The notes below the pieces were generated by a model. It made no database searches. It was not told where the DNA came from and worked only from the letters and a program-made list of their open reading frames with translations. A program made the position numbers and the translations under genes. Source: a virus. From it: DNA of 64,000 nucleotides. The stretch covers positions 6,748 to 70,747 of IMG/VR virus record IMGVR_UViG_3300045988_098233, one strand, 5' to 3'. Within the stretch, counting starts at the first letter, position 1, and each line of letters begins with the position of its first letter. Below are positions 6,181 through 64,000 of this stretch, piece by piece.

Positions 6181-7499
6181 AAGCCCTCCAATTCGATCTC
6201 CGCGCTGACGCTTTCACCCTCGCATCTGGCCGTTACCGTCAGCGGTTTCGGGCTGTTCCCCCAGCACCTCACTGTCAACCGGTTCCCATTGACACTCACG
6301 CTGTAAGAACCCTCTGCGGCTCCCTCATAGGTCCACTCCACTGCCGCGTCCTGGCGAACGCCGCCGATAAACAGCGCCGCCTCCAAGGTCTCTACATCGT
6401 AGGGGGCCATATACCGGGGAACCTCGTTCAAAAACCGTACCGCCGGTGTTTTTGCCGCCGATGCCTCCACCGTCACGGCGAAGGTCCCGCCGTAAGTCCG
6501 GTTTTGGTCCAGCACCGCCGTGATTTGGCAGGTGCCCTCGCCTACCGCTGTTACCACGCCTTTGCTGTCCACCGTGGCCACGTTGGTGTCGCTGGAACAC
6601 CATACATAGCCGATGGGGTGTTCCTCCGTGTTCTCCACCTCGGCCCCGTTCCGCCGGGAAGCAGCGGTGAATTGGAAGGCATCCCCCGCTGTCATGCGGG
6701 GCGCCCCGGTGACAAATACCGCCCAGGAGAAGTTCTTCCCCCCTGCCACCTTCGCTTCCAGATCGTCGATCTCGTGGTTCGGCTCCTGCATCCGGGCGTT
6801 GAAATACAGCAGGTGTGTGCTTTCATCGTCCCCGGTGAACTCCTGCGTCACGTCGGAGTAGCCCGTGATCTGGTAGGCCCGCCGCCCTAAGATCAGGCGG
6901 CTGTTCTGGTCTAACTGCTCCGTGTTGGCGTTTCGCTGGCAGATAATGTTGAAATATCCCTGCATGATGAGGGTCATTTCCTGAAAATCGTTGGCTGTGG
7001 CCTGCGCCAAGGACTTTTCCACAAGGATCGGTTCTTCTCGGATGTTCCCGTACCAGTCCAGAAACCGCCACACGGCGTTGCACCGCCGCATGATCCCGGT
7101 CCCTATTGCGCTGGACAGGTTGGATGGGTTCGTCACCAGCCAGTAGGAACCCATGGTCTCCACCTTGGCCCCCTCCGGGATGTAGTTCACTCCGGCGTCC
7201 GCCACCAGAAATGCCTTCTGATCATCGGTTTTCCGGGTGAGGCTGACGCCTTGCTTGGTGGTGTCGGAAAGCCGGATACGCTTTGTGCTCCACCGGTAGA
7301 AGTCACCGGAAACCAAGCCCTGCATCCGGGCCGTCACAAAGTCCGTGGCGTAAGGAGCCATTTCCTCCACAAACCGGGCCGTGGCATCCGCAAAATACTG
7401 CCGCTTCCGATCCCGATATTGAGGCGGTGCGTTGGTTGCCCTGCCGCTCCCGCCGCTCAGTAGGCCGATGTTTTTCATGCCGTGCTTGGCGTTCGCCAT
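6177..7499 (-). CDS. structural protein with Big_2-type Ig-like repeats
   Basis: 440 aa. Big_2 signature WCSSDTNVATVDSKGVVTAVGEGTCQITAVL plus a second Ig-like repeat at the C-terminus. Confidence 0.55.
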   Translation of the reverse strand: MANAKHGMKNIGLLSGGSGRATNAPPQYRDRKRQYFADATARFVEEMAPYATDFVTARMQGLVSGDFYRWSTKRIRLSDTTKQGVSLTRKTDDQKAFLVADAGVNYIPEGAKVETMGSYWLVTNPSNLSSAIGTGIMRRCNAVWRFLDWYGNIREEPILVEKSLAQATANDFQEMTLIMQGYFNIICQRNANTEQLDQNSRLILGRRAYQITGYSDVTQEFTGDDESTHLLYFNARMQEPNHEIDDLEAKVAGGKNFSWAVFVTGAPRMTAGDAFQFTAASRRNGAEVENTEEHPIGYVWCSSDTNVATVDSKGVVTAVGEGTCQITAVLDQNRTYGGTFAVTVEASAAKTPAVRFLNEVPRYMAPYDVETLEAALFIGGVRQDAAVEWTYEGAAEGSYSVSVNGNRLTVRCWGNSPKPLTVTARCEGESVSAEIELEGL

Positions 7500-9686: not shown

Positions 9687-10046
9687 TTAAGTCACGGTGA
9701 TCTCGTCTCCGCTGTAGGTGATTTTCCCGTAGTCGCTGGGAATGGCTTCCACGATCACGCGGGACAGCGCCGCGTAGTTGGCGTCCGGCGTCACAATCTG
9801 CTGGACTCCGGACGGCACCACGGTTTTTTCCTGATAGACCCGCCCTTCTCCATCGGTGACGTTCAGAACCACGTCCTGAATGTCCATCACCATAGGCTTG
9901 AAGCAGGTCTCCGGCGTCAGTGTAGAGTGCTTGTTGGGTGTCAGCTCAGCTCCTTTGACTGCGGTCGGTTCTTCCGTGTCCGGCGGTATCCCGGCAGTGG
10001 GAACGGCGCAGCCTTCCGGGGTCAGGGTGGAGTGTTTGTTCGCCAT
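9687..10046 (-). CDS. hypothetical protein (NKHSTLTPE duplicated)
   Basis: 119-aa ORF. Confidence 0.45.
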   Translation of the reverse strand: MANKHSTLTPEGCAVPTAGIPPDTEEPTAVKGAELTPNKHSTLTPETCFKPMVMDIQDVVLNVTDGEGRVYQEKTVVPSGVQQIVTPDANYAALSRVIVEAIPSDYGKITYSGDEITVT

Positions 10047-10351
10047 CAGATCACCCCTTCCACGATGGCCTTCCGCACGTTCACATCCGGTCCCCGGAAG
10101 CCCACCACCTCCTGATGGGGCAGTTTCATTCGTCCGCCGGTCTCAACGGGCCGGTCAGGCAGCTTCAGGCTCTGTTCCTGTGAAAGGGAGAAATACCACT
10201 GCCCCTCCGCGTAGGTCAGCCCGCCGTTGGGGTAGAACTTTGCAATGCCGCCGATCTTCAGCACCAGGAGTTCCACCATCTGCGGCTCGATCACAACATC
10301 GTTCTGCCGCACCACGATGGGGATCAGATAGGAGTCTCCCTGCATCGCCAT
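10046..10351 (-). CDS. hypothetical protein
   Basis: 101-aa ORF with a 1-nt overlap with the downstream gene. Confidence 0.45.
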   Translation of the reverse strand: MAMQGDSYLIPIVVRQNDVVIEPQMVELLVLKIGGIAKFYPNGGLTYAEGQWYFSLSQEQSLKLPDRPVETGGRMKLPHQEVVGFRGPDVNVRKAIVEGVI

Positions 10352-10381
10352 TGCTCTGTTCCCCCCTTCGGTTTAAAACTC

Positions 10382-11404
10382 TCAGCCGGTCCAGTCGGCT
10401 TTGCTCTCTCTCACGTCGATATGCGTGAATCCTTCCTTCGTGTAAATGCCCACGCCGCCCCAGTCCGGCATCAGCTGTCTGGCGTAGGCCGCCACCTGCG
10501 CCGGGGTCTTGCCCCGCACCACAATGTCAGCCGCCGTGCCGTAGCAGTGCTGGCTGTCCGTCACGCCGCCCACTTTGGCGTTGTACTGGGGCGTCCGATA
10601 CCCACTGTTGATGGTCACAGCCGCGCAAAAGTGACTGCGGAGGCTCTGCAAAACCATCACCAGCCGGGGCGCTACCAGCACGGCATCGGAGCCGTCCTTG
10701 CAGGCAAATTCTCTCACTGCAAAGTTTGTGGACAGTTTCTTGCCGCCGTCCTTCGCCTTGGAATAGGCGTTGATCTCTACCATGGGTTTTTCTCCTTCCG
10801 GTTCAAATGCGTCCCCGCTTTTCAGTTTCCAGACGAGGAAAAACGGGATCACCCGCCCGTCCCCGGTAAAACCATTGCCGTCCTTGTCCATGAAGCAGGT
10901 GCTTCCTCCGCCGTCCATCATAATGGCGTTGTCCCAGCCGGAGGATACCAGCAAATCACGGAGCTGTTCCGGCGACCGCCGGTCCTTGCTCACATAGTAG
11001 GCAAACCGCCCGTTCTTGGTGCCGATGGCCGTTCGGGGCGCACGGTAGCTCATATCCGCTCCGCAGGTGACGGGGCTGATCTTCTTCCCGCCGATGATAA
11101 GGTGAACGCACTCCATGTAGTTTGCGTCCCCGTTGGGCACGGTTTTTACGCCGAAATCCTCCGGGGTGTTCCAGCTGATGGCCCATGCCCGATAATCCGG
11201 GGCCTTGTAAACCTTTCCGTCTGCCTTCAGGTGGCAGGCGGGCTGCTGGTTCCTTAGAAAAATGGAGCCGTTGCAGATGGCATCTCCGCCTGTCTCTGCC
11301 AACATCTTCTTGAGGTTGGCCGTGGTGGAGCGGAGACGTTTTCTGTTGAAATAAATCCGCAACCATTGGAGGTCCTGAAGCGGAATTGTACCCGCTCTGG
11401 TCAT
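10382..11404 (-). CDS. two-domain endolysin: phosphodiester-glycosidase-like (DUF2233) N-domain plus peptidase M15A C-domain
   Basis: 340 aa. N-domain motifs NGSIF...MMDGGGST. C-domain FAVREFACKDG...INSGYRTPQYNAKVGGVTDSQHCYGTAADI...GFTHIDVR (Zn ligands H-D-H). Confidence 0.8.
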   Translation of the reverse strand: MTRAGTIPLQDLQWLRIYFNRKRLRSTTANLKKMLAETGGDAICNGSIFLRNQQPACHLKADGKVYKAPDYRAWAISWNTPEDFGVKTVPNGDANYMECVHLIIGGKKISPVTCGADMSYRAPRTAIGTKNGRFAYYVSKDRRSPEQLRDLLVSSGWDNAIMMDGGGSTCFMDKDGNGFTGDGRVIPFFLVWKLKSGDAFEPEGEKPMVEINAYSKAKDGGKKLSTNFAVREFACKDGSDAVLVAPRLVMVLQSLRSHFCAAVTINSGYRTPQYNAKVGGVTDSQHCYGTAADIVVRGKTPAQVAAYARQLMPDWGGVGIYTKEGFTHIDVRESKADWTG

Positions 11405-11784
11405 TTTCTCAGGTTCTTGCGGCTGTAGCAGCAGCCCCGGCTGTCATAGCTCAGCTCCCAGTGACCCACGGTGATGGTGGTGTCAGCGCGGCTCTCGTCC
11501 CGATCCATCACAGGGATGGCAATGCCGTAGACCCCGCCGCCCAGTGCCTTGTTGGAGTAGCGGATAGGCTTGCCGTCGCTGGCGATCTTGTAGATGCCGT
11601 CCTTCCCGTCATCCTCACCGGGGATGAAGCCCTCTTTCATCTCCTGCTCCGTCCAACCGGCCACGCCGCCGTCGGGATTCAGGTGGAAGTTGGCACCGGC
11701 CTCCTTCAGGGCCTCGTTGATCTCATCAATGGTCTTACCGGTGGCCTTGCCCTCGTTGATGATCTCTGCATATTTCTTGTCCAT
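11401..11784 (-). CDS. hypothetical protein upstream of endolysin
   Basis: Start trimmed to MDKKYAEI (ATG 11784, AAAGGAG RBS). 4-nt overlap with the endolysin. Confidence 0.5.
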   Translation of the reverse strand: MDKKYAEIINEGKATGKTIDEINEALKEAGANFHLNPDGGVAGWTEQEMKEGFIPGEDDGKDGIYKIASDGKPIRYSNKALGGGVYGIAIPVMDRDESRADTTITVGHWELSYDSRGCCYSRKNLRK

Positions 11785-11802
11785 GATTTGTTCTCCTTTC
11801 AA

Positions 11803-12041
11803 ATCAAAAAATGGTTGTTGATTCTATCTATGTCCCCCTCGTCCTTGCCCCCCCCTCCAAAGGAGGGGTTCCCAAAGGGGAGGAATCGCAATTCCGCCCC
11901 TTTGTGCCGTTTCAAGGGGGTGCGGGGGGAAATCGGAATCCCCCCGCGTTTCTCTTTAGGGGGCCGGGGGGACATTCTCTTTTCAAAAGAGAATATCCCC
12001 TTGGCTTCCGCTGGGGACCCCAGCCCTTTGCGGAAGCAATT
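11803..12041 (-). ncRNA. hairpin-rich structured intergenic element, copy 2 (unknown class)
   Basis: 239 nt with no ORF. A series of GC-clamped hairpins, e.g. GGGGGGA-UUCCGAUU-UCCCCCC and GGGGAuAUUCUCUUUUgAAAAGAGAAUgUCCCC. Homologous to 8802-9122. Confidence 0.5.
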
Positions 12042-12314
12042 TTAATTACTCATCTGCTTTGCAATCTGATTGACCCCGGTGCTGGCCAGGCCGCTCACAA
12101 TGCCCACTGCCACGGCGGTGAGATAGTCCGTTGCGGGGAAGTCTGCCATGATCAGCATCCCCACCACGCCCAGAACGCCGCCGGACACGCCCACAACAAT
12201 GGGGATCCATTTGTTCTCAATGGCGGTGGCCTTCACAGCCATGCCGATCAGGTAGCAGATCACCGTGATTACTGCCACGCTTGCAATGCCAAATCCAGAA
12301 ATATCCATGTTCAA
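12042..12314 (-). CDS. holin (Hol44 / holin superfamily V type)
   Basis: 90 aa, three hydrophobic segments. MDISGFGIASVAVITVICYLIGMAVKAT..NKWIPIVVGVSGGVLGVV..AVGIVSGLASTGVNQ pattern. Confidence 0.75.
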   Translation of the reverse strand: MNMDISGFGIASVAVITVICYLIGMAVKATAIENKWIPIVVGVSGGVLGVVGMLIMADFPATDYLTAVAVGIVSGLASTGVNQIAKQMSN

Positions 12315-12329
12315 TTCCTCCTGTTGACC

Positions 12330-13118
12330 TTAGTCCTCTTCCGCTGCCTCCGCGCTGTTCAGCGCGTCCAGCACCGGGCGGAACATTCCCTTCCGCCTGG
12401 GGTCCTCCTTGGGTTCTTCGGCATACCGGGCCTTGTTCTTTGCGTTCAGCTGCTTCAGCAGTTCCCGGCTGTCGGCGCTTACCTCGCCCCGCTCCCATGC
12501 GTCATAGTAAGCCTTGGCCACCATCTCCTGATGCTCCGTGCAGAGATCGTCGAAGATGTCCAGCAGCTTGTCCCCCATGGTCACGGCGCAGCGGAAAGCC
12601 GTCTCGTCCAGCACCTCGCCCTTGCGGTACGCGCAGTGGTACACCGCCCGTTCCGCATCGGTCATCCCGGAGAGCACCACCAGCCACCGCCGGTCAATAA
12701 GCCGTCTTGCCGTCTCGTCATAGAACCGGCTCCACTCGCTCTTGGGCACCATCACCGTTCCGTTCTTCCCCGTCACGGTGCCGTACATCCCGTTGGGTCC
12801 GAATACAGCCAGATTATCGTCCGCCACCGGGGCGCACCAGCGGAGCGTCACCTTTTCCGTGTCCGCCATCACCTGCACCACTTGGGGTTTGACCTCCGCC
12901 ATGGCCTTTGCAACGGCCTCCGCCGCCGCCTGTTTGGCGATCTCCGCTACCTCATCGGCTGTATAGAGCTTTTCGGGTTCCTTCTCCGCCGCAGGTGCTT
13001 TCTGCTCTGCCACGGGCGCAGCCTTTGTCTGTTCCCGCAAGGGCTGGTCGGCTGCTTCCAGCTCCTGGGCTTCAATCCCCGCCGCCACATCTGCGGCCGT
13101 CCGTTTCTCTTTTGCCAT
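12330..13118 (-). CDS. hypothetical protein (Ala/Glu-rich N-term)
   Basis: 262-aa ORF between the capsid gene and the holin. Confidence 0.5.
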   Translation of the reverse strand: MAKEKRTAADVAAGIEAQELEAADQPLREQTKAAPVAEQKAPAAEKEPEKLYTADEVAEIAKQAAAEAVAKAMAEVKPQVVQVMADTEKVTLRWCAPVADDNLAVFGPNGMYGTVTGKNGTVMVPKSEWSRFYDETARRLIDRRWLVVLSGMTDAERAVYHCAYRKGEVLDETAFRCAVTMGDKLLDIFDDLCTEHQEMVAKAYYDAWERGEVSADSRELLKQLNAKNKARYAEEPKEDPRRKGMFRPVLDALNSAEAAEED

Positions 13119-13232
13119 CTTTGTCCGCTCCTTTCAGATACAAGATGCTTTGTTTTCTGTTGCGCTCCGCCCTCATGCAGGCTTTGCGCCATATCTGCGG
13201 GAGAGAGGGTTTCCTCCCTCCCGCTTTGGGTC

Positions 13233-22179: not shown

Positions 22180-23540
22180 ACAGCTAAAGCCGGGGCGATT
22201 CTCGGTTCACCGACTACCGCCTCCCGTTTCTGGGGGGGCTTACGCAGTCTCCTCGAGCGTATAGGTTCGGGCGTGTCCCGCCCTACCTTGTGTAGTGGCT
22301 ACGCCAACAGGCGCAAGCCCTCATTCAAAATGTTCTTTGCGGCGTTCACGTCCCTATCATGGACAGCACCGCACTTGGGGCAAGTCCATTCCCGGACGGA
22401 CAGGTCTTTTGTTCCGGGCCACTGTGCGCCGCAAGCGGAGCAAAGCTGACTGGACGGAAAGAAACGATCGACCGTGACCACCTGTTTTCCGTACAACGCC
22501 GCCTTGTACTCCAACTGCCGCCGGAACTCGCTCCAACTTGCATCAGAGATTGCCTTTGCCAGTTTGTGGTTCTTGACCATGTTCTTGGGAACTAAGTCCT
22601 CAATCGCAATCAAGTCATAAGTTCGCACAAGGATGGTGGACAGTTTATGGAGCATATCCTGCCGCTGATTGGCAACGTGTTCGTGGAGCCGTGCTACTTG
22701 TATCCTCGCCTTTTCCCGGCGGTTACTGCCCTTTGATTTTCGGGACAACTGCCGCTGGAGTTTGGCAAGTTTCTTCTGGCTCCGGGTCAGGTATTTATGG
22801 TTCGGATACTCTACGCCATCGGAGGTGATAGCAAATGCTTTCAGGCCCATGTCGATACCGGCCACCGCGCCGGTAGTGGGTAGCAGATTCATCTCCACAT
22901 CGGCGCAGCATAAAGAAACAAAGTATTTCCCACTGGAAGTGCGGGACACGGTAGCAGTCAAGATACGACCCTCCACCTTCTTGGAGATACGGCATTTTAC
23001 CCGCCCCAACTTGGGGAGTCGGACAGCCTTCTCCAAGACCTTTATGTTGGCATTAACACATCTGCTTGTATAGCTTTGTTTATAGCTTTTCTTACTCTTG
23101 AAACGCGGATAGCCAAACCGGTTGTCTCCCTCTTTGATGCTACGGAAGAAGTTCTGGAAGGCTTTATCTAAATTCTGCACCGCAGATTGCAGGGCGGTGG
23201 AATCCACCTCTTTCAGCCATAGCAGAGTTTTTTTCAGCATTGGAAGGTCGTTTCTCTGCTGGTAGCGAGAAGGTGAGTGCCCTGTATCCTTGTATTGGCT
23301 CTGCCACTGGTCGAGAAAGTAGTTATACACAAACCGACAGCAGCCGAAGGTTTTATTTATTTGACTCTTTTGCTGTGCGTTCGGATAAATGCGAAATTTA
23401 TAACTGTATCCATCCACCGTCCTCTCCCCCCTTCTGTGAGCGAGATACTATAAAGATGGTTAGTTTATTTGCTTGTGTATGCGTCTTATAGTCCCGTAGC
23501 AAAAGAACGTGTGTACGACGCTTTCCTAAAAAAAACAGAG
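22180..23540 (-). mobile_element. IS200/IS605-family element carrying only tnpB (IS1341-like); ends approximate
   Basis: tnpB plus a structured 3' flank (22182-22298, omega/reRNA position). Visibly lower GC than the flanks. Inserted between the early and late operons. Confidence 0.6.
22299..23417 (-). CDS. tnpB: TnpB RNA-guided nuclease (IS605 OrfB family)
   Basis: 372 aa. RuvC contexts GIDMG, AIEDL and [10 protein letters not shown]. Zinc finger CSACG...CPKCG. No tnpA nearby. Confidence 0.9.
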
Positions 23541-39035: not shown

Positions 39036-39488
39036 ATGCTGTCATTGATTGACCAGTGCCGCGCGGTAAAAGAAGAAAAACACATCACAAACAAGGAAAT
39101 CGCGGACGGCAGCGGAGTTCCTCTCAACACGGTGAACAATATGTTCCGTGCCACCACCCATTCCCCTACGTTGGAAACTCTCGGCCCCATCTGCGTTTTC
39201 CTCGGAATTTCCATTGACCAGTTTTTAGGGATGAAACCAACGGAAGATTCTCCGCCACCGGAAACCATAGAGGAAATCGTAAACCGGGAACTGGATGTCT
39301 ACCGTCAGGAGATCAACGGCCTGAACGCCCAGAACGAACTTCTCCGGGAATTTGTGGAACGTCAGTCCCGCGGCATCCGCAACCGGGACCGTCTTTTGCG
39401 ATGGATGTTGGTCCTTTTGATCTTCGTCGTGGCTTACGCCGTTTATCTGGACCTGCACTGTCTGGAATTTGGGTTCTTCCACGGCTGA
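39036..39488 (+). CDS. membrane-anchored XRE-family regulator
   Basis: 150 aa. N-terminal HTH_3 (ITNKEIADGSGVPLNTVNNMF), coiled coil, C-terminal TM (WMLVLLIFVVAYAVYL). Confidence 0.6.
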   Translation: MLSLIDQCRAVKEEKHITNKEIADGSGVPLNTVNNMFRATTHSPTLETLGPICVFLGISIDQFLGMKPTEDSPPPETIEEIVNRELDVYRQEINGLNAQNELLREFVERQSRGIRNRDRLLRWMLVLLIFVVAYAVYLDLHCLEFGFFHG

Positions 39489-39508
39489 TACACACGGGAG
39501 GTGTGCGC

Positions 39509-40672
39509 ATGAAATGCAAAAACTGTAAGCGTGTCATTGATGATGATTCTATCTTCTGCAAGTGGTGCGGTGAACGCCAGATCAGGGAGCGAAAAAAGAA
39601 GGACGAGATCAAAGTCCCCTCCCCACGTCAGTTGAAGTCCGGCAAGTGGAACATCGAACTGCGGGCCGAAGGGCAAAGTATCACGGAAGATACCGCCGCT
39701 CTCTGCGAAGCCAAGGCCCGCGCCATCCGCGCCGGCTTTCTGGAAGCTAAAAAGGAAGCAAAATGCAGTCTCACGCTTCTTCAGGCAATCGACAGTTATT
39801 TGGAAAAAAATCAATCTTTGTCTCCATCCACGATCCGGGGATATGAGTGTATCAAAAAGAATCGCTTCCCCGGAAAGATCAATGCCAAAATACAGGATAT
39901 ATCAAATTGGCAGCAGGAGATCGACGAAGCCAGTGAAACCCTGTCCCCTAAAACAGTGTATAATTCATGGGGCCTTGTTTGCACCGTGATGCGGGACAAT
40001 CATATACCTCCGCCGGAAGTCCGTCTCCCTCAAAGCATAAAAAAAGACCTTCCCTGGCTGACCTACCAGCAGATCCTTGTTTTTGTGGGCGCTGTGAGCG
40101 GCAGCCGGTTTGAAGTGGGCGCGCTGCTGGCCCTTCACAGCCTCCGCCGGTCTGAAATATTCGGCCTATCTTGGGAAAACATCGACTTAAAGAAAAAGCG
40201 GATCAAAATTCAAGGCGCACGGGTCATGGATAAAAACGGAGACTTTGTGTATAAAAAGACCAACAAAAACGTTTCGTCTCAACGCACGATCCAAATTATG
40301 ATCCCCGCCCTTTACGAGCTGCTTTCGCAGCGGAAAAGCGCCGGCCTTCCCATTCTGGATTGTACTGAAAATTCTTTGCGCGGCGGCATCAACCTGATCT
40401 GCAAAAAGAATGACCTTCCTGAGTGCGGTGTTCACGGTCTCCGTCGCTCCTTTGCCTCCCTCGGTTTCCATCTTGGGCTTAGCGAATTGGAAGTGCAAGA
40501 AATCGGTGGATGGAGCGACCACAACACCGTTCATAAGATTTATCTCAAACTCGCCAGAGAGGACCGTCTCAACGCTGAAAACAAAATGGAGCAGTTTTAC
40601 AAAAACCGAGGCGATGACCCTGCTCCGGACGAAGAACAGCCCCCTGACCAAACGCCTCGCGCATCCGCCTGA
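39509..40672 (+). CDS. int: tyrosine integrase with N-terminal zinc ribbon
   Basis: ATG 39509 with GGGAGGTG RBS. CKNCK...CKWCG. Catalytic contexts LHSLRRSE, HGLRRSFAS and HNTVHKIYL. Confidence 0.9.
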   Translation: MKCKNCKRVIDDDSIFCKWCGERQIRERKKKDEIKVPSPRQLKSGKWNIELRAEGQSITEDTAALCEAKARAIRAGFLEAKKEAKCSLTLLQAIDSYLEKNQSLSPSTIRGYECIKKNRFPGKINAKIQDISNWQQEIDEASETLSPKTVYNSWGLVCTVMRDNHIPPPEVRLPQSIKKDLPWLTYQQILVFVGAVSGSRFEVGALLALHSLRRSEIFGLSWENIDLKKKRIKIQGARVMDKNGDFVYKKTNKNVSSQRTIQIMIPALYELLSQRKSAGLPILDCTENSLRGGINLICKKNDLPECGVHGLRRSFASLGFHLGLSELEVQEIGGWSDHNTVHKIYLKLAREDRLNAENKMEQFYKNRGDDPAPDEEQPPDQTPRASA

Positions 40673-55817: not shown

Positions 55818-55889
55818 GCAGACGTAGCTCAGTAGGCAGAGCACCGCGCCAGGAGGTATGCGCTGGTTCAAGTCCAGCCGTCTGCACCA
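55818..55889 (+). ncRNA. acceptor-stem module 3: tRNA-like with normal D and T arms but aberrant anticodon arm
   Basis: GCAGACG TA GCTCAGTAGGCAGAGC A ... GCTGG-TTCAAGT-CCAGC CGTCTGC A CCA. Only 18 nt (CCGCGCCAGGAGGTATGC) sit where a 17-nt anticodon arm plus variable loop should be. Confidence 0.45.
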
Positions 55890-56029: not shown

Positions 56030-56104
56030 AGGGGTGTAGCCAAGCGGTAAGGCAAGGGACTTTGACTCCCTCACGCGCTGGTCCGAATCCAGCCATCCCT
56101 GCCA
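56030..56104 (+). tRNA. tRNA-Gln (UUG)
   Basis: Acceptor AGGGGTG/CATCCCT, D arm GCCAAGCGGTAAGGC (Gln-typical), anticodon stem AGGGA/TCCCT with loop CTTTGAC, T arm GCTGG-TCCGAAT-CCAGC, G73, CCA. Confidence 0.9.
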
Positions 56105-56132: not shown

Positions 56133-56408
56133 ATGAACAAGACTGAATTGATCGCCGCCGTTGCGGAGCGCACCGGCCACACCAAGCATGACACCGCTCT
56201 GCTGGCCGACGCTCTGTTCACCGTCATTGAGGAATCCCTGCTCAACGGCAGCGAGGTCAAAGTCCCCGGCTTCGGCAAGTTCGCCGTGAAGCACCGGGAA
56301 GCACGGGTGGGGAAAGACCCCCGCACCGGCGAGGAAAAGGAATTTCCCGCCAAAACGGTTGCGGTGTTCCGCCCCGCAAAGCCCCTGAAGGACGCCCTGA
56401 ACGGCTGA
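56133..56408 (+). CDS. hup: HU-family DNA-binding protein
   Basis: 91 aa. MNKTELIAAVAE...VKVPGFGKFAVKHREARVGKDPRTGEEKEFPA. Confidence 0.9.
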   Translation: MNKTELIAAVAERTGHTKHDTALLADALFTVIEESLLNGSEVKVPGFGKFAVKHREARVGKDPRTGEEKEFPAKTVAVFRPAKPLKDALNG

Positions 56409-58652: not shown

Positions 58653-59735
58653 ATGCTCAAGAGTTACTATTTTGACGCGGCGGCCCACGAACCGCCCTCC
58701 CCTGCCGCAGTTAAGGCGTTCACCCGCGCCCTGCCCCTCGGCAACCCCAGCGCCCTGCATGACCGCGGTATCGCCGCAAAACAGGCGTTGGAGCACGCAC
58801 GGGAAAGGATCGCCCAAGACCTGAACTGTCTCCCGGAGGAAGTCTACTTCACCAGCGGGGCCACGGAAGCCTGTAACTGGATGATGGAGACGCTGGAAGC
58901 GTTCTGCACGCACATCAAATTCCCCCGGCACTACGAGCACCACGCCGTTCTGGAATATCCCCCCGTGGATCATCCCCACCGCACGAACCGCACCGGCTTC
59001 ACCCATATGCTGGCCCACAACGAGACCGGCGAGATTTACGACATTCTCTCCATGCGGCGCAACGAGTCTGACGCCCTCTTTGCTGCCTGTGACGGTACTG
59101 CCGCTGTCGGTCATATCCCCGTGGACTTCAAGGCCCTTGGCGTGGACTATCTGGCTTTCGGTGCCCATAAGTTCGGCGGCATCGCCGGGATCGGCTGTCT
59201 GATCGTCCGTCGGGGCGCACCCCTGATCGCCATGATCCGCGGCGGAGCGCAGGAGCGGGGCAAGCGGGCGGGAACGGAAAGCGTGGCCCTCGCCTGTGCG
59301 ATGGCTGCCGCCCTCCATGAGCGCACTGTCCATATGGACGCTGACCGGGAACACCTTGCCAAATGCCGCGATCTGCTGATTTCCTATCTGTTGCGATTCA
59401 TCCCGGATACCTACGTCAACGGCTTTTATGAACCCGGCGATACGATCCGCCGTCTGCCCGGAAACGCCAACCTCTCCTTCTTGGGCGTGGAATCCCCCGC
59501 CCTCGTCATGGCCCTGTCTGCGGAGGGCGTGTACGCATCCTCCGGCTCCGCCTGTACCAGCGGGGAGGCAGGCGGAAGCTATGCGCTCCGGGCGATGGGC
59601 TACCCTGCCAGCCGTGCCAGCTCCGCTGTCCGCTTCACCCTGCCCCACACCGTCACCGAGGATGATGTGCTGGGCGCCGTCCCTTTGATCGTCAGCACCG
59701 TGGAAAAACTCCGTCGCCTGACCCCCACCCCCTGA
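58653..59735 (+). CDS. divergent class-V aminotransferase / cysteine desulfurase (NifS/IscS-like)
   Basis: 360 aa. FTSGATEA, HNETGEI, PLP-Lys FGAHKFGG, RAGTE, active-site loop SSGSACTSGE. Confidence 0.85.
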   Translation: MLKSYYFDAAAHEPPSPAAVKAFTRALPLGNPSALHDRGIAAKQALEHARERIAQDLNCLPEEVYFTSGATEACNWMMETLEAFCTHIKFPRHYEHHAVLEYPPVDHPHRTNRTGFTHMLAHNETGEIYDILSMRRNESDALFAACDGTAAVGHIPVDFKALGVDYLAFGAHKFGGIAGIGCLIVRRGAPLIAMIRGGAQERGKRAGTESVALACAMAAALHERTVHMDADREHLAKCRDLLISYLLRFIPDTYVNGFYEPGDTIRRLPGNANLSFLGVESPALVMALSAEGVYASSGSACTSGEAGGSYALRAMGYPASRASSAVRFTLPHTVTEDDVLGAVPLIVSTVEKLRRLTPTP

Positions 59736-59768: not shown

Positions 59769-60776
59769 ATGGGAAGAACCTCTGCGCAGGAGCGCCGGGT
59801 CATGTCGGCCTTAGACTCATGGCTCCGCAACGTGCAGGCCAGCGGTGCGGCGGAGCGCACCGTCACCGCCTACGCCGCCGTCACAAACAGTTTTTATTCC
59901 TTCCTCGTGGAAAGCGGCCTTTCCACCGAGGAACCCACCTTCACCACCATGCAAGCCTACCGGGATCACCTCTTTGACCGGGGCCTTTCCCCTGTCTCCG
60001 TCCGGTATCATCTGGTGGTCCTCCGCTCCTTCTTCACCTACGCCAGTTCCCCGGAACTGGGCGAGGATCGCTTTTATGAGCAAAACCCTGTTTCCCTCTA
60101 CCTCATGCCCTCCCTCCGCAAATTGGGAAAGCGCCCCTATGACGTGCTGCTCACCGATGAGCAGGTCTGCAAGCTATGGCGGGATTCCCCCGTCCGCACC
60201 ACCCACCCGGAGAACTGGCCCCGGAATTACGCCATCGTGATCCTGCTGCTAACCACCGAACTGCGCAACGCCGAACTGCGGGCCTTGACCCCGGCGGACA
60301 TCGACTTGGAGGACGCCGCCCTCCGTGTGGAACACGGCAAGGGCGATAAATTCCGGGTGGTGGACCTGCCCGACATCGCCGTGATTGCCCTCCGCCATTA
60401 CCTCGCAAGCGGCATCCGCCCGGACGATCTCCCGGATACCGCCCCCGTGTTCGGCACCCTCCGTTCCGGCGAATGGAAGGCCGGCACAAAACAGTGGCTT
60501 TCGGAGCTGGTGGAGCGTCACGTCCGCTCTGTCACCGGCGTTCCTGACATCCGCAGCCACGATCTCCGCCACGTCGGCTCCCGTCTGGACCTCAATTCTG
60601 GTATGCCCGAAAATGAACTGCAAGCCAAATTGGGCCATGCCAGTCCCATCACCACCCAGCGTTATTCCGGGCGGCTCATGGACCGTTCCGGGCGGAAAAG
60701 CGCCAAGAAGGTCTTTGCCGAACGGGACTTGCAAGCCAAGCGCAGTGCCGACAAACTTGCCTCCTTTTCCGCCTGA
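59769..60776 (+). CDS. tyrosine recombinase (XerC/D-like)
   Basis: 335 aa. TTELRNAELRAL, VEHGKGDKFR, SHDLRHVGSR, LGHASPITTQRYSG. Confidence 0.85.
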   Translation: MGRTSAQERRVMSALDSWLRNVQASGAAERTVTAYAAVTNSFYSFLVESGLSTEEPTFTTMQAYRDHLFDRGLSPVSVRYHLVVLRSFFTYASSPELGEDRFYEQNPVSLYLMPSLRKLGKRPYDVLLTDEQVCKLWRDSPVRTTHPENWPRNYAIVILLLTTELRNAELRALTPADIDLEDAALRVEHGKGDKFRVVDLPDIAVIALRHYLASGIRPDDLPDTAPVFGTLRSGEWKAGTKQWLSELVERHVRSVTGVPDIRSHDLRHVGSRLDLNSGMPENELQAKLGHASPITTQRYSGRLMDRSGRKSAKKVFAERDLQAKRSADKLASFSA

Positions 60777-60878: not shown

Positions 60879-61526
60879 ATGATTTACGGCTATATCCGCG
60901 TCTCCACCGACAAGCAGACCTTGGAAAATCAGCGCCATATCATCCTCAATTACTGTGAAGTGAACGGGCTTCACATAGATGGCTGGATCGAGGAAACCAT
61001 CTCCGGCACCAAAGCCCCGGACAAACGAAAGCTGGGCCAGCTTCTCCGCCATGTCCAGCCGGGAGACACCATCCTCTGTTCCGAGATTTCCCGCCTTGGC
61101 CGCAGCCTGTTTATGGTCATGTCCATCCTCTCCCTCTGCATGAGCAAGCGCGTCAGCGTCCACACCATCAAGGACGGCTTTGACCTCAGTGATGATCTCC
61201 AATCCAAGGTCCTCGCCTTCGCCTTTGCCCTTGCCGCCGAGATCGAGCGTCAGATGATCTCCCAGCGGACGCGGGAAGCGCTGGACCTCCGCCGCAGTCA
61301 GGGTGTCACCCTTGGACGTCCCAAGGGCGCTCTGGGCAAGCACACGAAACTGTCCGACTATGAATCCACCATCCGCGTCCTGATCGAGCAGGACAATTCC
61401 TATGCGGAGCTGGCCCGACTGTTCCATGTGGACCGCTCCACCATGAAGCGTTTCTGCGACGCGCGGGACATCAAACGCCCCTTTTCCCGCAACGCCGCCG
61501 GGTTCATTTCCGATGTTGCGGGATAA
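60879..61526 (+). CDS. serine recombinase, DNA invertase type (Hin/Gin/Cin-like)
   Basis: Start trimmed to MIYGYIRVSTDKQ (catalytic Ser motif). Resolvase N-domain. C-terminal HTH (YAELARLFHVDRSTMKR). Confidence 0.9.
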   Translation: MIYGYIRVSTDKQTLENQRHIILNYCEVNGLHIDGWIEETISGTKAPDKRKLGQLLRHVQPGDTILCSEISRLGRSLFMVMSILSLCMSKRVSVHTIKDGFDLSDDLQSKVLAFAFALAAEIERQMISQRTREALDLRRSQGVTLGRPKGALGKHTKLSDYESTIRVLIEQDNSYAELARLFHVDRSTMKRFCDARDIKRPFSRNAAGFISDVAG

Positions 61527-61646
61527 CCCCCTCTATTTCGCCCGGAAACGCCCTCAGATGCCTTCTGATGCTTCCCTATCACCGTATATCCCCTGACCCG
61601 TCCTCACCCTCCTGCGCCCACCCCTGCCCCCGCCGTTGCCGTTTAT

Positions 61647-61769
61647 CGGCCGATAGTTTGGCCGGGAAGGAGCGTGGCTGATATGGCGTACACACCGACC
61701 GTCTGGAAGAACGGAGAATTTCCTCCGATTGATGCGGAACACCTCAACAAGATCGAACAGGGGATTGCC
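61647..61769 (+). repeat. inverted repeat, left arm (contains crossover site 1, GGCCGATAGTTTGG at 61648-61661)
   Basis: About 123 bp matches the reverse complement of 63527-63649 with a few mismatches. Covers the RBS and the first ~29 codons of the fibre gene. Confidence 0.8.
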
Positions 61770-62411
61770 AACTCTGCCCCCGGTGGGTTTGGGCTGGGTG
61801 GTGCGTCAAAGCTATTATCTGCTGCTGATGACTTGAATAATATTCGTATCACAGGCTGGTATGTCTGGTCCTATACTTCGCCTCCTCAAAATGCCCCGGA
61901 TAATAATTGGGGCAAATATGGTTGCTCAATGTACGTAGTTGCAACTGAACCGAATGGTTATGCAATCCAAACAGTATATGATTTAAGCGATGATATTACT
62001 CATGGATGTGCTATACAGCGCACTATATGCCCGAGTACATCTGGCAATATATATTATCCGTGGGAATGGATTAACCCGCCCATGCAGCTCGGCACTGAAT
62101 ACCGCACCACGGAGCGGTATCTTGGCAAGCCGGTTTACACGCAAATCGTACAATTCGACAATTTAAGTACAAACCAAGCTTTTGCTCCTGGCGGCGAAAT
62201 TTTCCGTGCGATTGGTGAATACCAGTACCCGGATTCTTCCGGTAAATACATACCAAACATGCCCACAAATCCTACTGGGGGAACGATGACCGCTAATAGC
62301 CCATACATGGAGTTTGGTGACAATTATAACAGAACGCTTAGAGTGCAGTTGAAATCGGACTCTCAATGCCTTGGAAAGAGTGCCCGCGTGCAAATGTGGT
62401 ACACGAAGTAG
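61683..62411 (+). CDS. tail fibre / receptor-binding protein, cassette A
   Basis: Start set at MAYTPTVWKNGEFPPIDAEHLNKIEQGI (GGAAGGAG RBS), the typical phage fibre N-terminus. The variable C-part has lower GC. Confidence 0.7.
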   Translation: MAYTPTVWKNGEFPPIDAEHLNKIEQGIANSAPGGFGLGGASKLLSAADDLNNIRITGWYVWSYTSPPQNAPDNNWGKYGCSMYVVATEPNGYAIQTVYDLSDDITHGCAIQRTICPSTSGNIYYPWEWINPPMQLGTEYRTTERYLGKPVYTQIVQFDNLSTNQAFAPGGEIFRAIGEYQYPDSSGKYIPNMPTNPTGGTMTANSPYMEFGDNYNRTLRVQLKSDSQCLGKSARVQMWYTK

Positions 62412-62419
62412 GTGGCTCT

Positions 62420-62593
62420 ATGGAAAACACCTGCATCTGTTGTGACGCTATTATTTCAGAAGGACGGCAAATCTGCGCTGATTGCGAAAGAGTAGGATGG
62501 GATATGAATAACAGCTGTGTATGCTGCGGGGCAATCATCCCCGAAGGCCGTCAGGTGTGTTTCAGTTGCGAAAGGAAATGGCCCACATTTTGA
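62420..62593 (+). CDS. small duplicated zinc-ribbon protein (fibre accessory/chaperone position)
   Basis: MENTCICCDAIISEGRQICADCE...NNSCVCCGAIIPEGRQVCFSCE, two copies of the same Cys motif. Confidence 0.5.
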   Translation: MENTCICCDAIISEGRQICADCERVGWDMNNSCVCCGAIIPEGRQVCFSCERKWPTF

Positions 62594-62627
62594 AAAGCCG
62601 GAGGGGATTTCCCTCCGGCTTTTTTTA
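62593..62627. terminator. bidirectional terminator between convergent fibre cassettes
   Basis: AAAAGCCGGAGGGGATTTCCCTCCGGCTTTTTTT. Confidence 0.7.
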
Positions 62628-62713
62628 GAACTCCGGCCACCGTCTCTCGCACAAAGGGCAAACCCACCGCCCCTCCGGCACAATGGCTCCACATATCACA
62701 CAATAGTCCATGG

Positions 62714-63613
62714 TCAGTCGGTGGTTTTGGTGTAGCGCATAAGCGCCACGGTAGCATTCGCTGACTGATCGCTAACGCCAGATGCGGATTGGAGGAAAAC
62801 ATTAACACCGTCAGCTCCGATAGTATATTTTTCTACAAACGGGACCGTATTCCCGTTGCTCATCCGTGCCGTTATACTAACTGGATAGCAGTTGCTTATG
62901 CCATGAGCAACCTGACGCGAATTGCCAGGGGGTGGGAATTTGCCGCAATCTATTAGCCTGCAATACACCGGCTTTCCGAGATACCGCTCCATAGTTTTGT
63001 ATTCCACGCCAAGCAGCATGGGTGGGTTTTGGTATTCCATCACGGCCGCAAGCGTCTCCCCGCTCGGGAGCGTATCATCTGTGGAAATAAATGTCGGAGT
63101 AGTCAGTGTAATCGGATTGTGTCCGCAATTGCAGAGTTGCAAGTTCCAATCATTTTTGCCCGTTCCCGATACGTAGAGGTCCAAAGCTAACGTGCTTCCG
63201 TCGACTTTTACAAGACGAGCATTGGAAATATATGGCACGCTATTGATTTGGCCAACGCTCCTCAAACATTGGAGTTTTCCATGCGTATCGGGTGCCGAAG
63301 ATACGCCTAAGAGCAACTCGGACGCGCCTCCGTTCGCCCATGCATGGGATACTGTGAGATACCCGCTTGTGTTGTATTGAACGAATGGCTCCGTGATTCG
63401 ATACCAGCCGATTTGCCCACCAGCACTTTCTGCAACTAAAAACTGTCCGTTTAACGCGGAAATATTTCCCCTCGCCTGGGCCTTCTCTTTATTGGAAAGA
63501 TTCTGCGGCGTGACACTGATTGCATCGGCAATGCCCTGCTCGATCTTGTTGAGATGTTCCGCGTCAATCGGAGGAAATTCTCCGTTCTTCCAGACTGTCG
63601 GTGTGTATGCCAT
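62714..63613 (-). CDS. tail fibre / receptor-binding protein, cassette B
   Basis: Same N-terminus MAYTPTVWKNGEFPPIDAEHLNKIEQGI, different C-part. Shares the NPPM(Q/L)LG(T/V)EY(R/K)T(T/M)ERYLGKPVY block with cassette A. Confidence 0.7.
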   Translation of the reverse strand: MAYTPTVWKNGEFPPIDAEHLNKIEQGIADAISVTPQNLSNKEKAQARGNISALNGQFLVAESAGGQIGWYRITEPFVQYNTSGYLTVSHAWANGGASELLLGVSSAPDTHGKLQCLRSVGQINSVPYISNARLVKVDGSTLALDLYVSGTGKNDWNLQLCNCGHNPITLTTPTFISTDDTLPSGETLAAVMEYQNPPMLLGVEYKTMERYLGKPVYCRLIDCGKFPPPGNSRQVAHGISNCYPVSITARMSNGNTVPFVEKYTIGADGVNVFLQSASGVSDQSANATVALMRYTKTTD

Positions 63614-63649
63614 ATCAGCCACGCTCCTTCCCGGCCAAACTATCGGCCG
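63527..63649 (-). repeat. inverted repeat, right arm (crossover site 2 at 63635-63648)
   Basis: Reverse complement of 61647-61769. Confidence 0.8.
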
Positions 63650-63679
63650 TTTGGACGCAACGCAAAAAGGAACGCACGG

Positions 63680-63817
63680 TCAATCCGTGCGCTCCACGTA
63701 CAGGGCTTCCGCTCTGCGCTGTGCGTCCAGCAGGTCTGCTTTCAGCCGATCCAGTTCTTCAATGGCTTCCGTAATGGCGTGAAACAAGCAGAGGTATTCC
63801 GGGGTCAGATGCTCCAT
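63680..63817 (-). CDS. small coiled-coil protein inside the site2-site3 segment
   Basis: My translation is MEHLTPEYLCLFHAITEAIEELDRLKADLLDAQRRAEALYVERTD. AAAGGAGGGG RBS. Confidence 0.45.
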   Translation of the reverse strand: MEHLTPEYLCLFHAITEAIEELDRLKADLLDAQRRAEALYVERTD

Positions 63818-63923
63818 ATCGTCCCCTCCTTTCTGCGGTCAGTGTACCACGTACACCGTGTCGAAAAAGCGGGAAATCCGGCGGTGAGCAGAAAACTTTT
63901 TTCATCAACCGTTGCGCCTAAAT

Positions 63924-63937
63924 GGCCGATAGTTTGG
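63924..63937 (+). repeat. crossover site 3 (GGCCGATAGTTTGG)
   Basis: Third exact copy of the 14-mer, preceded by the shared GTTGCG block, 10 nt upstream of the next fibre ATG. Confidence 0.6.
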
Positions 63938-63947
63938 AGGTGGCGTA

Positions 63948-64000
63948 ATGGCTTACGAAAAAACCGTGTGGGCCAACGGTCAGGCCCCGGCGCTGGATGC
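63948..64000 (+). CDS. tail fibre cassette C, N-terminal fragment (runs off right edge)
   Basis: MAYEKTVWANGQAPALDA parallels the N-termini of cassettes A and B. Confidence 0.6.
   Translation, partial: MAYEKTVWANGQAPALD

Follow-up and report, generated by a model that had tools for sequence, protein, structure and literature searches.

A small serine recombinase placed beside the DNA that it inverts is known from Gin and the G segment of Mu, Cin and the C segment of P1, Pin of e14 and their relative Min of p15B. The master DNA invertase Mpi of Bacteroides fragilis flips promoter segments at many loci scattered over the chromosome; its repeats contain the motif ARACGTWCGT. In the R64 shufflon, the tyrosine recombinase Rci exchanges the C-terminal end of pilV, which encodes the adhesin of a conjugative pilus and not a phage fibre. 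The Min system has more than two crossover sites and stores several fibre specificities, one of which at a time is placed behind the expression signals (summarised in part in PMC6109161). A tyrosine recombinase is predicted for the Rin shufflon of Bifidobacterium prophages (Mavrich et al. 2018), the isomers of which were recognised by comparing prophage and virion assemblies (PMC6109161). Here we describe a locus at the end of a 64,000-nucleotide stretch of viral DNA (IMG/VR record IMGVR_UViG_3300045988_098233, positions 6,748 to 70,747 of that record; the whole stretch is called the window). With a probability of about 75%, we interpret it as a programmed switch that exchanges the receptor-binding tail fibre by multiple inversions, in which a serine invertase of the Mpi family shuffles whole gene cassettes among crossover sites, and the cassette at site S4 is expressed. 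A first-pass annotation of the sequence had proposed a multi-site invertible fibre switch beside an invertase gene, and the sites, the natural isomers and the serine recombinase bear this out.

The 14-mer GGCCGATAGTTTGG is found exactly at 61648-61661 (+), 63635-63648 (-) and 63924-63937 (+), and no further copy was detected in the 64 kb when up to two mismatches were allowed. One hundred shuffles yielded no match at 0 mismatches (0 expected, 3 seen). GTTGC lies at a constant 8 nucleotides (nt) upstream of every copy, and the 27-nt sites of the window read GTTGCCGTTTATC-, GTTGCGTCCAAAC- and GTTGCGCCTAAAT-GGCCGATAGTTTGG for S1, S2 and S3, respectively. In each site, the outer half (GTTGC-N8) varies, the GGCC core is symmetric, and the inner half, GATAGTTTGG, is conserved and leads into a ribosome-binding site (RBS). 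The GGCC crossover is located 19-31 nt 5' of each ATG, ahead of the RBS. The four sites are the following:

61635..61661, plus strand: site S1, with outer half o1 GTTGCCGTTTATC, GGCC core at 61648-61651 and inner half GATAGTTTGG
63635..63661, minus strand: site S2, with outer half o2 GTTGCGTCCAAAC and GGCC core at 63645-63648
63911..63937, plus strand: site S3, with outer half o3 GTTGCGCCTAAAT and GGCC core at 63924-63927
beyond the window, in contig L002, minus strand: site S4, with outer half o4 GTTGCGGAAAAAC

S1 and S2 are embedded in a 136-nt inverted repeat, 91% identical (61634-61769 and 63527-63662), which covers the RBS and about 29 codons, while S2 and S3 form a 28-nt inverted repeat and S1 and S3 a 29-nt direct repeat. 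The three copies of the 14-mer, their shared upstream block (now defined as GTTGC, 8 nt off) and the S1/S2 repeat over the RBS and first 29 or so codons had all been noted in the first-pass annotation, which also raised the question of whether the 14-mer is conserved in related switches. It is conserved in IMG/VR: in about ten contigs the site is kept alongside differing cassettes (139-369 amino acids, aa), and every exact copy of the 14-mer falls in the switch, three of three in the window and likewise in the related contigs.

Behind the four sites are four cassettes, each consisting of a complete fibre open reading frame (ORF) followed by a 28-aa zinc-ribbon ORF. They are arranged in convergent pairs, A><B and C><D, with a hairpin within each pair:

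61683-62411, plus strand: fibre cassette A, a complete ORF of 242 aa with its own RBS, starting MAYTPTVWKNGEFPPIDAEHLNKIEQGI
62420-62503 and 62504-62593, plus strand: tandem zinc-ribbon mini-ORFs of A, zrA1 and zrA2, with matches to Pfam DZR_2/DZR below the cut-off
62593-62623: hairpin between the convergent A and B, a perfect 13-base-pair (bp) stem preceded by an A-run and followed by a T-run, likely a bidirectional terminator
62625-62711, minus strand: zinc-ribbon mini-ORF of B (zrB), 28 aa, MDYCVICGAIVPEGRWVCPLCERRWPEF, with weak zinc-ribbon Pfam matches
62714-63613, minus strand: fibre cassette B, 299 aa, starting MAYTPTVWKNGEFPPIDAEHLNKIEQGI
from 63948, plus strand: fibre cassette C, 139 aa in full and cut by the window end, starting MAYEKTVWANGQAP
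in L002, beyond the window, minus strand: fibre cassette D, 248 aa

The window ends inside the switch, S4 and cassette D lying just past position 64000. We read the continuation in contig L002 (ENA ERZ28576496 scaffold_208), whose positions 10001-13122 are 100% identical to 60879-64000 of the window. Past 64000, the order in L002 is the remainder of cassette C (139 aa) and zrC, a hairpin, zrD with cassette D (248 aa, minus strand), and S4 (minus strand). Extension of the contig, which had been suggested as a means to count further cassettes, therefore adds a fourth site and a fourth cassette. The fibre, zinc-ribbon and 45-aa ORFs (the last is described below) and the lower G+C content of the cassettes are as first annotated, except that the start of cassette C is corrected to 63948. 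G+C is 0.41-0.50 within cassettes against about 0.60 in the flanks.

The fibre N-terminus is conserved over about 30 aa, in two subtypes that begin with MAYTPTVWKNGEFPP and MAYEKTVWANGQAP; cassettes of the A/B type and of the C/D type are only about 79% identical past the site. A CxxC...CxxC motif is common to zrA1/zrA2, zrB, zrC and zrD. No Pfam match was obtained for the fibre proteins, and PHROG gave only weak N-terminal matches, for B and C. An AlphaFold2 (AF2) model of fibre B (predicted local distance difference test score, pLDDT, 81.7) matched tail-fibre, collagen-like and EPS-depolymerase proteins in BFVD (6e-14 to 1e-4, with low template-modelling (TM) scores of about 0.3), and only marginal or weak tailspike matches were found with it in the PDB. 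Among 642 fibre homologues, some carry collagen or dockerin domains, and collagen repeats are present. The fibre genes are placed at the distal end of the tail operon, directly after the genes for the tape measure, a 700-aa protein and a 418-aa tail protein. A '190-aa' gene seen beside some cassettes proved to be merely an antisense ORF of the invertase gene.

About 40 related contigs were gathered with fibre A, fibre B and the 45-aa protein as queries and by pattern scans of IMG/VR, and most of the cassettes on them match the window at 100% identity. Three pairs of contigs differ by an exact inversion. Between L003 and L005, a 1481-nt segment is identical at 1479 of 1481 positions in reverse complement, both 300-nt flanks matching at 300/300; the pair L148 and L151 gives the same figure, 1479/1481, in reverse complement; and L149 and L152 have exchanged flanks, against which the entire 3.3-kb switch is reversed. 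L005 is a natural two-cassette form that matches the product of a deletion between S1 and S3, an event that had been anticipated from their direct orientation. Two contigs have an identical unique flank at both ends (L017/L025 for o2, L023 for o1), which is the signature left by an assembler when both orientations are present within one sample, and several contigs of 68-72 kb stop at S1 (L006 and L007, for example).

A census of the junctions gave 12 combinations of outer half and cassette, every join being exactly at GGCC:

outer half o1: joined to A, B, C and D
outer half o2: joined to A and B
outer half o3: joined to C and D
outer half o4: joined to A, B, C and D

The identical fibre A protein was found in slots o1, o2 and o4, and cassette B likewise. 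Two junctions that join outer halves to each other were also found: o2|o1, GTTGCGTCCAAAC-GGCC-GATAAACGGCAAC, in five contigs (L148, L151, L154, L155 and L156), and o1|o3, in L010. The crossover is located within the 14-mer, as had been proposed, because the outer halves differ up to GGCC and the leaders of the A/B and C/D types differ right after GTTTGG; all natural junctions lie at its GGCC. The outer/outer junctions, which share only GGCC or GGCCGATA, show that the exchange is confined to the palindromic GGCC. This fits a 2-bp staggered cut by a serine recombinase at the central GC.

The question arises as to whether a dedicated switch is needed at all, given that the repeats (leader and N-terminal codons, 110-136 bp) are long enough for RecA-type exchange, and that the 3' partners of the cassettes are demonstrably reassorted by homologous exchange, in 32-nt and 14-nt stretches of the zinc-ribbon ORFs. 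Nevertheless, we consider general homologous recombination between the repeats, in the course of phage evolution, a very improbable source of the isomers: cassettes of the A/B and C/D types, only about 79% identical past the site, replace one another in a given slot precisely at the 14-mer, the outer/outer junctions share only GGCC or GGCCGATA, the site is constant while the cassettes vary, and loss of the invertase gene coincides with loss of the switch.

The 3' ends of the cassettes show a second kind of exchange. Convergent partners differ between contigs (A><B, A><C, B><C, B><D and C><D). In the A><C and B><D contigs, we observed reciprocal zrA2/zrD hybrids, with the exchange inside a 32-nt identical stretch, and B><C has a zrC/zrA2 hybrid with the exchange inside 14 nt of identity; the hybrids are carried by L012, L015 and L021. 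The zinc-ribbon ORFs involved are those at 62420-62711 of the window and at 13533-13755 of L002. A second recombination site at the 3' ends was considered and rejected, the junctions being at differing short identical stretches inside the zinc-ribbon ORFs. Judging from these junctions, the reassortment of cassette pairs is homologous exchange via patches of zinc-ribbon homology.

Two recombinase genes lie next to the switch, on the same strand as cassette A:

60879-61526, plus strand: small serine recombinase, 215 aa, likely the switch invertase
59769-60776, plus strand: XerC/D-like tyrosine recombinase, 335 aa, with Pfam Phage_integrase and SAM-like domains, adjoining the invertase gene upstream

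The serine recombinase has a Resolvase domain (Pfam, 9.6e-35), a C-terminal helix-turn-helix at residues 155-191 and a match to PHROG 125 'DNA invertase' (6e-48). It passes the NCBIfam equivalog model NF009949, 'master DNA invertase Mpi family', with 279.3 bits for a cut-off of 272, the alignment covering residues 1-198 with a profile of 203 positions. Its best solved relative is Gin (7.7e-15, about 30% identity). The protein is present on 23 contigs by protein look-up, several of them of 68-74 kb, and gut metagenome fragments as well as Bacteroides phage B124-14 encode homologues of about 50% identity. No fibre cassettes were seen near the closest annotated invertases, those of B124-14, where the gene lies in the replication module, and of two unverified faecal contigs.

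Alternatively, the tyrosine recombinase at 59769-60776, the main rival candidate, could run the switch as Rci and Rin do in their shufflons, the serine recombinase then doing something else. Its gene is adjacent in every switch-bearing contig that reaches far enough upstream, and a separate 423-aa integrase-like tyrosine recombinase is encoded 20 kb off (39401-40672), which leaves the Xer-like enzyme without an obvious role in integration. The sites are asymmetric, one arm being conserved and the other variable, as in sfx sites, and S2 can be read as CCAAAC-N8-GTTTGG. The enzyme itself gave Xer-type NCBIfam matches, all below the cut-offs, and no arm-binding-domain family was detected in it, which is the layout described for Rin (PMC6109161). 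The distribution of the two genes speaks otherwise. In the IMG/VR relatives L052, L112 and L146, the serine recombinase gene is absent from the available loci (these span 4.5-14 kb, and the gene could be elsewhere in those genomes), and the tyrosine recombinase is kept at 98-99% identity. Each of the three has one complete fibre gene, in the S4 (o4) slot, and in L052 and L112 the spacer and left flank are reduced to remnants. Because these single-fibre relatives keep only the tyrosine recombinase, it is the presence of the serine enzyme, and not that of the tyrosine enzyme, that tracks the switch. Moreover, exchange limited to GGCC suits a 2-bp serine crossover, whereas a 6-8-bp overlap would require CGGCCG and S3 has TGGCCG, and it is the serine enzyme that passes the Mpi model. 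We therefore regard the serine recombinase as the likely switch enzyme and the XerC/D-like protein as probably not the switch enzyme; operation of the switch by the latter seems unlikely.

In one of these relatives, L112 (1080-2101; IMG/VR UViG_3300045988_110437), a second site is kept, and its 'cassette' is a 33-aa zinc-ribbon ORF only, which looks like a decayed storage slot. Another variant is found in L001 and L004 (11940-11975), where the inner half of S4 has diverged (GGCCGATATTCTGACTGG); the DNA of the invertase gene is 96-97% identical there and the 418-aa gene 85%. Both contigs have two cassettes (162 and 191 aa) without zinc-ribbon ORFs, in the same orientation, and this lineage may carry a locked switch.

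Which slot is expressed can be approached from the genes around the switch. The tail operon, encoded on the minus strand, has its end 73 nt past S4:

beyond S4 in L002, minus strand: tail operon, with a 1621-aa tape measure (PF10145), a 700-aa protein and a 418-aa tail protein (phrog_1887, 5e-38)

These three genes and S4 are on one strand, the operon reads into S4, and the interval from the 418-aa gene to S4 has no predicted terminator. The o2 slot, unlike S4, is preceded by a strong predicted terminator (63669-63695, minus strand). Because the tail operon reads into S4 and the single-fibre relatives use S4, cassette D would most likely be expressed in the isomer of the window, with A, B and C silent; the slot behind the tail operon is, in our interpretation, the expressed one, and the others would serve for storage.

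A mini-ORF with a strong RBS (AAAGGAGGAACTTTTATG) was noticed at 14535-14607 of L002 (minus strand). It starts in the constant flank after the 418-aa gene, crosses S4 and reads MKKICCGKTADSLEVA or ...SLAGKERG, according to the cassette type. In all o4 isomers (also L001, L003, L013 and L021), its stop codon either falls on the fibre ATG or precedes it by 1 nt, and L001 keeps the arrangement with 85% identity in the flank and the 418-aa gene. A translational coupling particular to the expressed slot is suggested by this.

The first-pass annotation had supposed instead that expression comes from the invertase side, into the S1 slot, and that the short segment between S2 and S3 redirects a promoter or leader between B and C. 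That segment has the following features:

63662-63910, no strand assigned: spacer 'seg2' between the back-to-back S2 and S3, within the flippable 275-bp segment
63680-63817, minus strand: 45-aa ORF with RBS sequence AAAGGAGGGG, 100% conserved in 32 index blocks
63669-63695, minus strand: predicted terminator (an 11-pair stem with 8 G-C pairs, and a T-run), facing S2 and directly before it

The invertase gene and the S1 slot are indeed co-oriented, 121 nt apart, without a predicted terminator; a promoter-like site lies in front of the invertase gene, and the 45-aa ORF has a strong RBS. However, the virion tail operon enters S4, on the other strand, and the sole fibre gene of the single-cassette relatives is at S4 and not at S1. 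As for the segment, its predicted flipping holds, since it is found both ways beside the invertase flank (L148, L151, L154, L155 and L156 in one orientation, L010 in the other), but its role as a promoter or leader does not fit with a strong terminator just before S2 and with the failure of sequence prediction to find, in the 275 bp, any promoter-like site aimed at B or C. The wiring first proposed is quite unlikely, and S4 is the more probable expressed slot.

The following mechanism can be proposed. The serine recombinase would cut at the central GC of GGCC and exchange DNA between any two sites. The cassettes would be promoterless and would be moved, as units of fibre and zinc-ribbon ORFs, between expressed and silent positions. 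Only the S4 slot, behind the 418-aa gene that closes the late tail operon, would be transcribed with the virion genes, the three other slots being storage. With a symmetric core, the sites would have no chemical polarity, and outer/outer joins, flips of the spacer and deletion or insertion of cassette pairs could occur besides ordinary inversions. A precedent among serine recombinases is the A118 integrase, for which experiments showed that site polarity is lost once the core is symmetric, both deletions and inversions being obtained (PMC3556126). The anatomy of the locus, its natural isomers, the exact junctions and the joint occurrence of invertase gene and switch are observed, whereas the identity of the acting enzyme, the 2-bp cut, the expressed slot and the effect on host range are inferred.

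Several points weigh against this interpretation. A tyrosine recombinase is encoded next door, and most junctions would equally be compatible with an overlap at the palindromic 6-bp CGGCCG. The site bears no resemblance to hix or gix, and it has no known counterpart of the Fis-bound recombinational enhancer of Gin-type systems. Direct evidence for recombination between similarly oriented sites comes from a single source, the outer/outer junctions, and the inner/inner palindrome junction CCAAACTATCGGCCGATAGTTTGG was not found in IMG/VR and JGI contigs. The isomers are taken from different assemblies and give no more than hints of rates and of switching within a population. Whichever cassette occupies the S1 slot may be weakly expressed, as it runs in the direction of the invertase gene and no terminator is predicted between the two. 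Finally, the genes are called 'fibre' genes on account of their position, of collagen-bearing homologues and of moderate fold matches, and this assignment is to be read as putative.

A broader scheme is tentative, and we give it less than even odds: the sites would be blind to orientation, and the locus might be an integron-like platform for trading cassettes among related phages, with whole cassette pairs excised or inserted as circles that bear an inner/inner palindromic site, and with the spacer acting as an invertible insulator against read-through from the invertase gene.

The phage that carries the switch is a gut siphophage of about 72 kb. The remaining window is phage DNA, with genes for a portal, a major tail protein with Ig domain, a primase and a further integrase, and tRNA genes. 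The switch DNA had no match among 50,697 GenBank phages, and a scan of GTDB genomes with the 27-nt site pattern returned only four single chance matches and pointed out no host. Strong Shine-Dalgarno sequences and the collagen- and dockerin-bearing homologues hint at a Firmicutes host. Other genes of the window deserve mention:

58653-59735: class-V aminotransferase or cysteine-desulfurase-like gene (Pfam Aminotran_5, 8e-32), directly upstream of the recombinases, conserved in every related contig and, as a phage auxiliary gene, unusual
55168-55241, 55818-55886 and 56030-56104: three-tRNA cluster (Gly-CCC, a third tRNA found by Rfam only, and Gln-TTG, respectively)
56133-56408: HU-like DNA-binding protein, 3' of the tRNA cluster
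22299-23417, minus strand: 372-aa ORF matching PHROG 506 'transposase' (5e-137), presumably an insertion sequence in the phage genome

HU-type proteins assist some serine recombinases, and one may speculate that the HU-like protein is tied to the switch. In a more distant relative, L153 (1800-4431; ENA ERZ28576038 scaffold_7414), cassette C is at the o2 side of the spacer and is followed by three small ORFs, a holin gene and a homologue of the 10.8-11.8 kb region of the window; no convergent cassette or invertase gene was found there. By its gene order, the switch of L153 occupies a different genomic neighbourhood.

If our interpretation is correct, one phage genome stores four or more receptor-binding proteins in a compact form and shows them one at a time. 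It is chiefly host range that stands in the way of using gut phages and of understanding them. As genes are moved past a fixed entry point for transcription and translation, the proteins can have unrelated folds and lengths of 139 to 369 aa, with no in-frame constraint. The symmetric core would explain the two-cassette, four-cassette and 'empty' outer/outer forms that are met in public metagenomes. The switch also breaks assemblies, and a host prediction made from a single assembled fibre gene would be misled. On the practical side, the 27-bp site and the 215-aa enzyme could make a small inversion tool.

How does the locus compare with the systems already described? We searched the literature available to us for a description of such a locus and found none, which is not proof of absence. 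The first-pass annotation saw in it a design that goes beyond the two-state segments of Mu and P1; this is true but was overstated, multi-site shufflons such as Min of p15B and Rin of bifidophages having been described before (PMC6109161). The locus resembles Min and its relatives Gin, Cin and Pin in having a small serine recombinase beside invertible DNA, and in that a segment bounded by inverted sites is found both ways (three isomer pairs, with about 99.9% identity in reverse complement and conserved flanks). With Min, it shares more than two crossover sites and several stored fibre specificities of which one at a time would be placed behind the expression signals, and the purpose served by the Gin and Min type, host-range variation, is the one that we assign to it. 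It differs from them in several respects. In Gin, Cin, Pin and Min, crossover takes place inside the fibre ORF and leaves a constant N-terminal and a variable C-terminal part, whereas here it is upstream of the RBS and whole ORFs are exchanged. The site, GTTGC-N8-GGCC-GATAGTTTGG, has a palindromic core and is not of the 26-bp hix/gix/cix type, the consensus of which has an asymmetric dinucleotide. The accessory gene encodes a 28-aa zinc ribbon and not an assembly protein of the U/Tfa type, and the enzyme belongs to the Mpi family, known for its part in surface variation of Bacteroides, and not to the Hin/Gin group.

The comparison with Mpi itself is one of kinship with a change of use: the B. 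fragilis enzyme acts on promoters at scattered places in a chromosome, whereas the one described here is encoded by a phage, acts locally and would move promoterless genes. The ARACGTWCGT of the Mpi repeats would resemble AAACG-GC-CGAT here. Tyrosine-recombinase shufflons (Rci with sfx, Rin with rix) likewise have more than two sites and generate many isomers from few segments; in the R64 shufflon, as here, several sites are present in both orientations, each has one conserved and one variable arm, and many isomers arise. Rin resembles it in setting, being also a multi-cassette shufflon of receptor-binding proteins beside the tail genes of a phage of human-gut bacteria, with short asymmetric repeats 5' of the variable units. 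It is unlike the present locus in that our evidence favours a serine recombinase and that the cassettes here are complete genes. The terminator-bearing spacer between back-to-back sites is a further difference from Gin, Cin and Pin, from Min and from Rin. Multi-site shuffling of fibres was thus already known, and what is new here is the swapping of whole genes upstream of their RBS, at a site with a symmetric core, beside an enzyme of the Mpi family.

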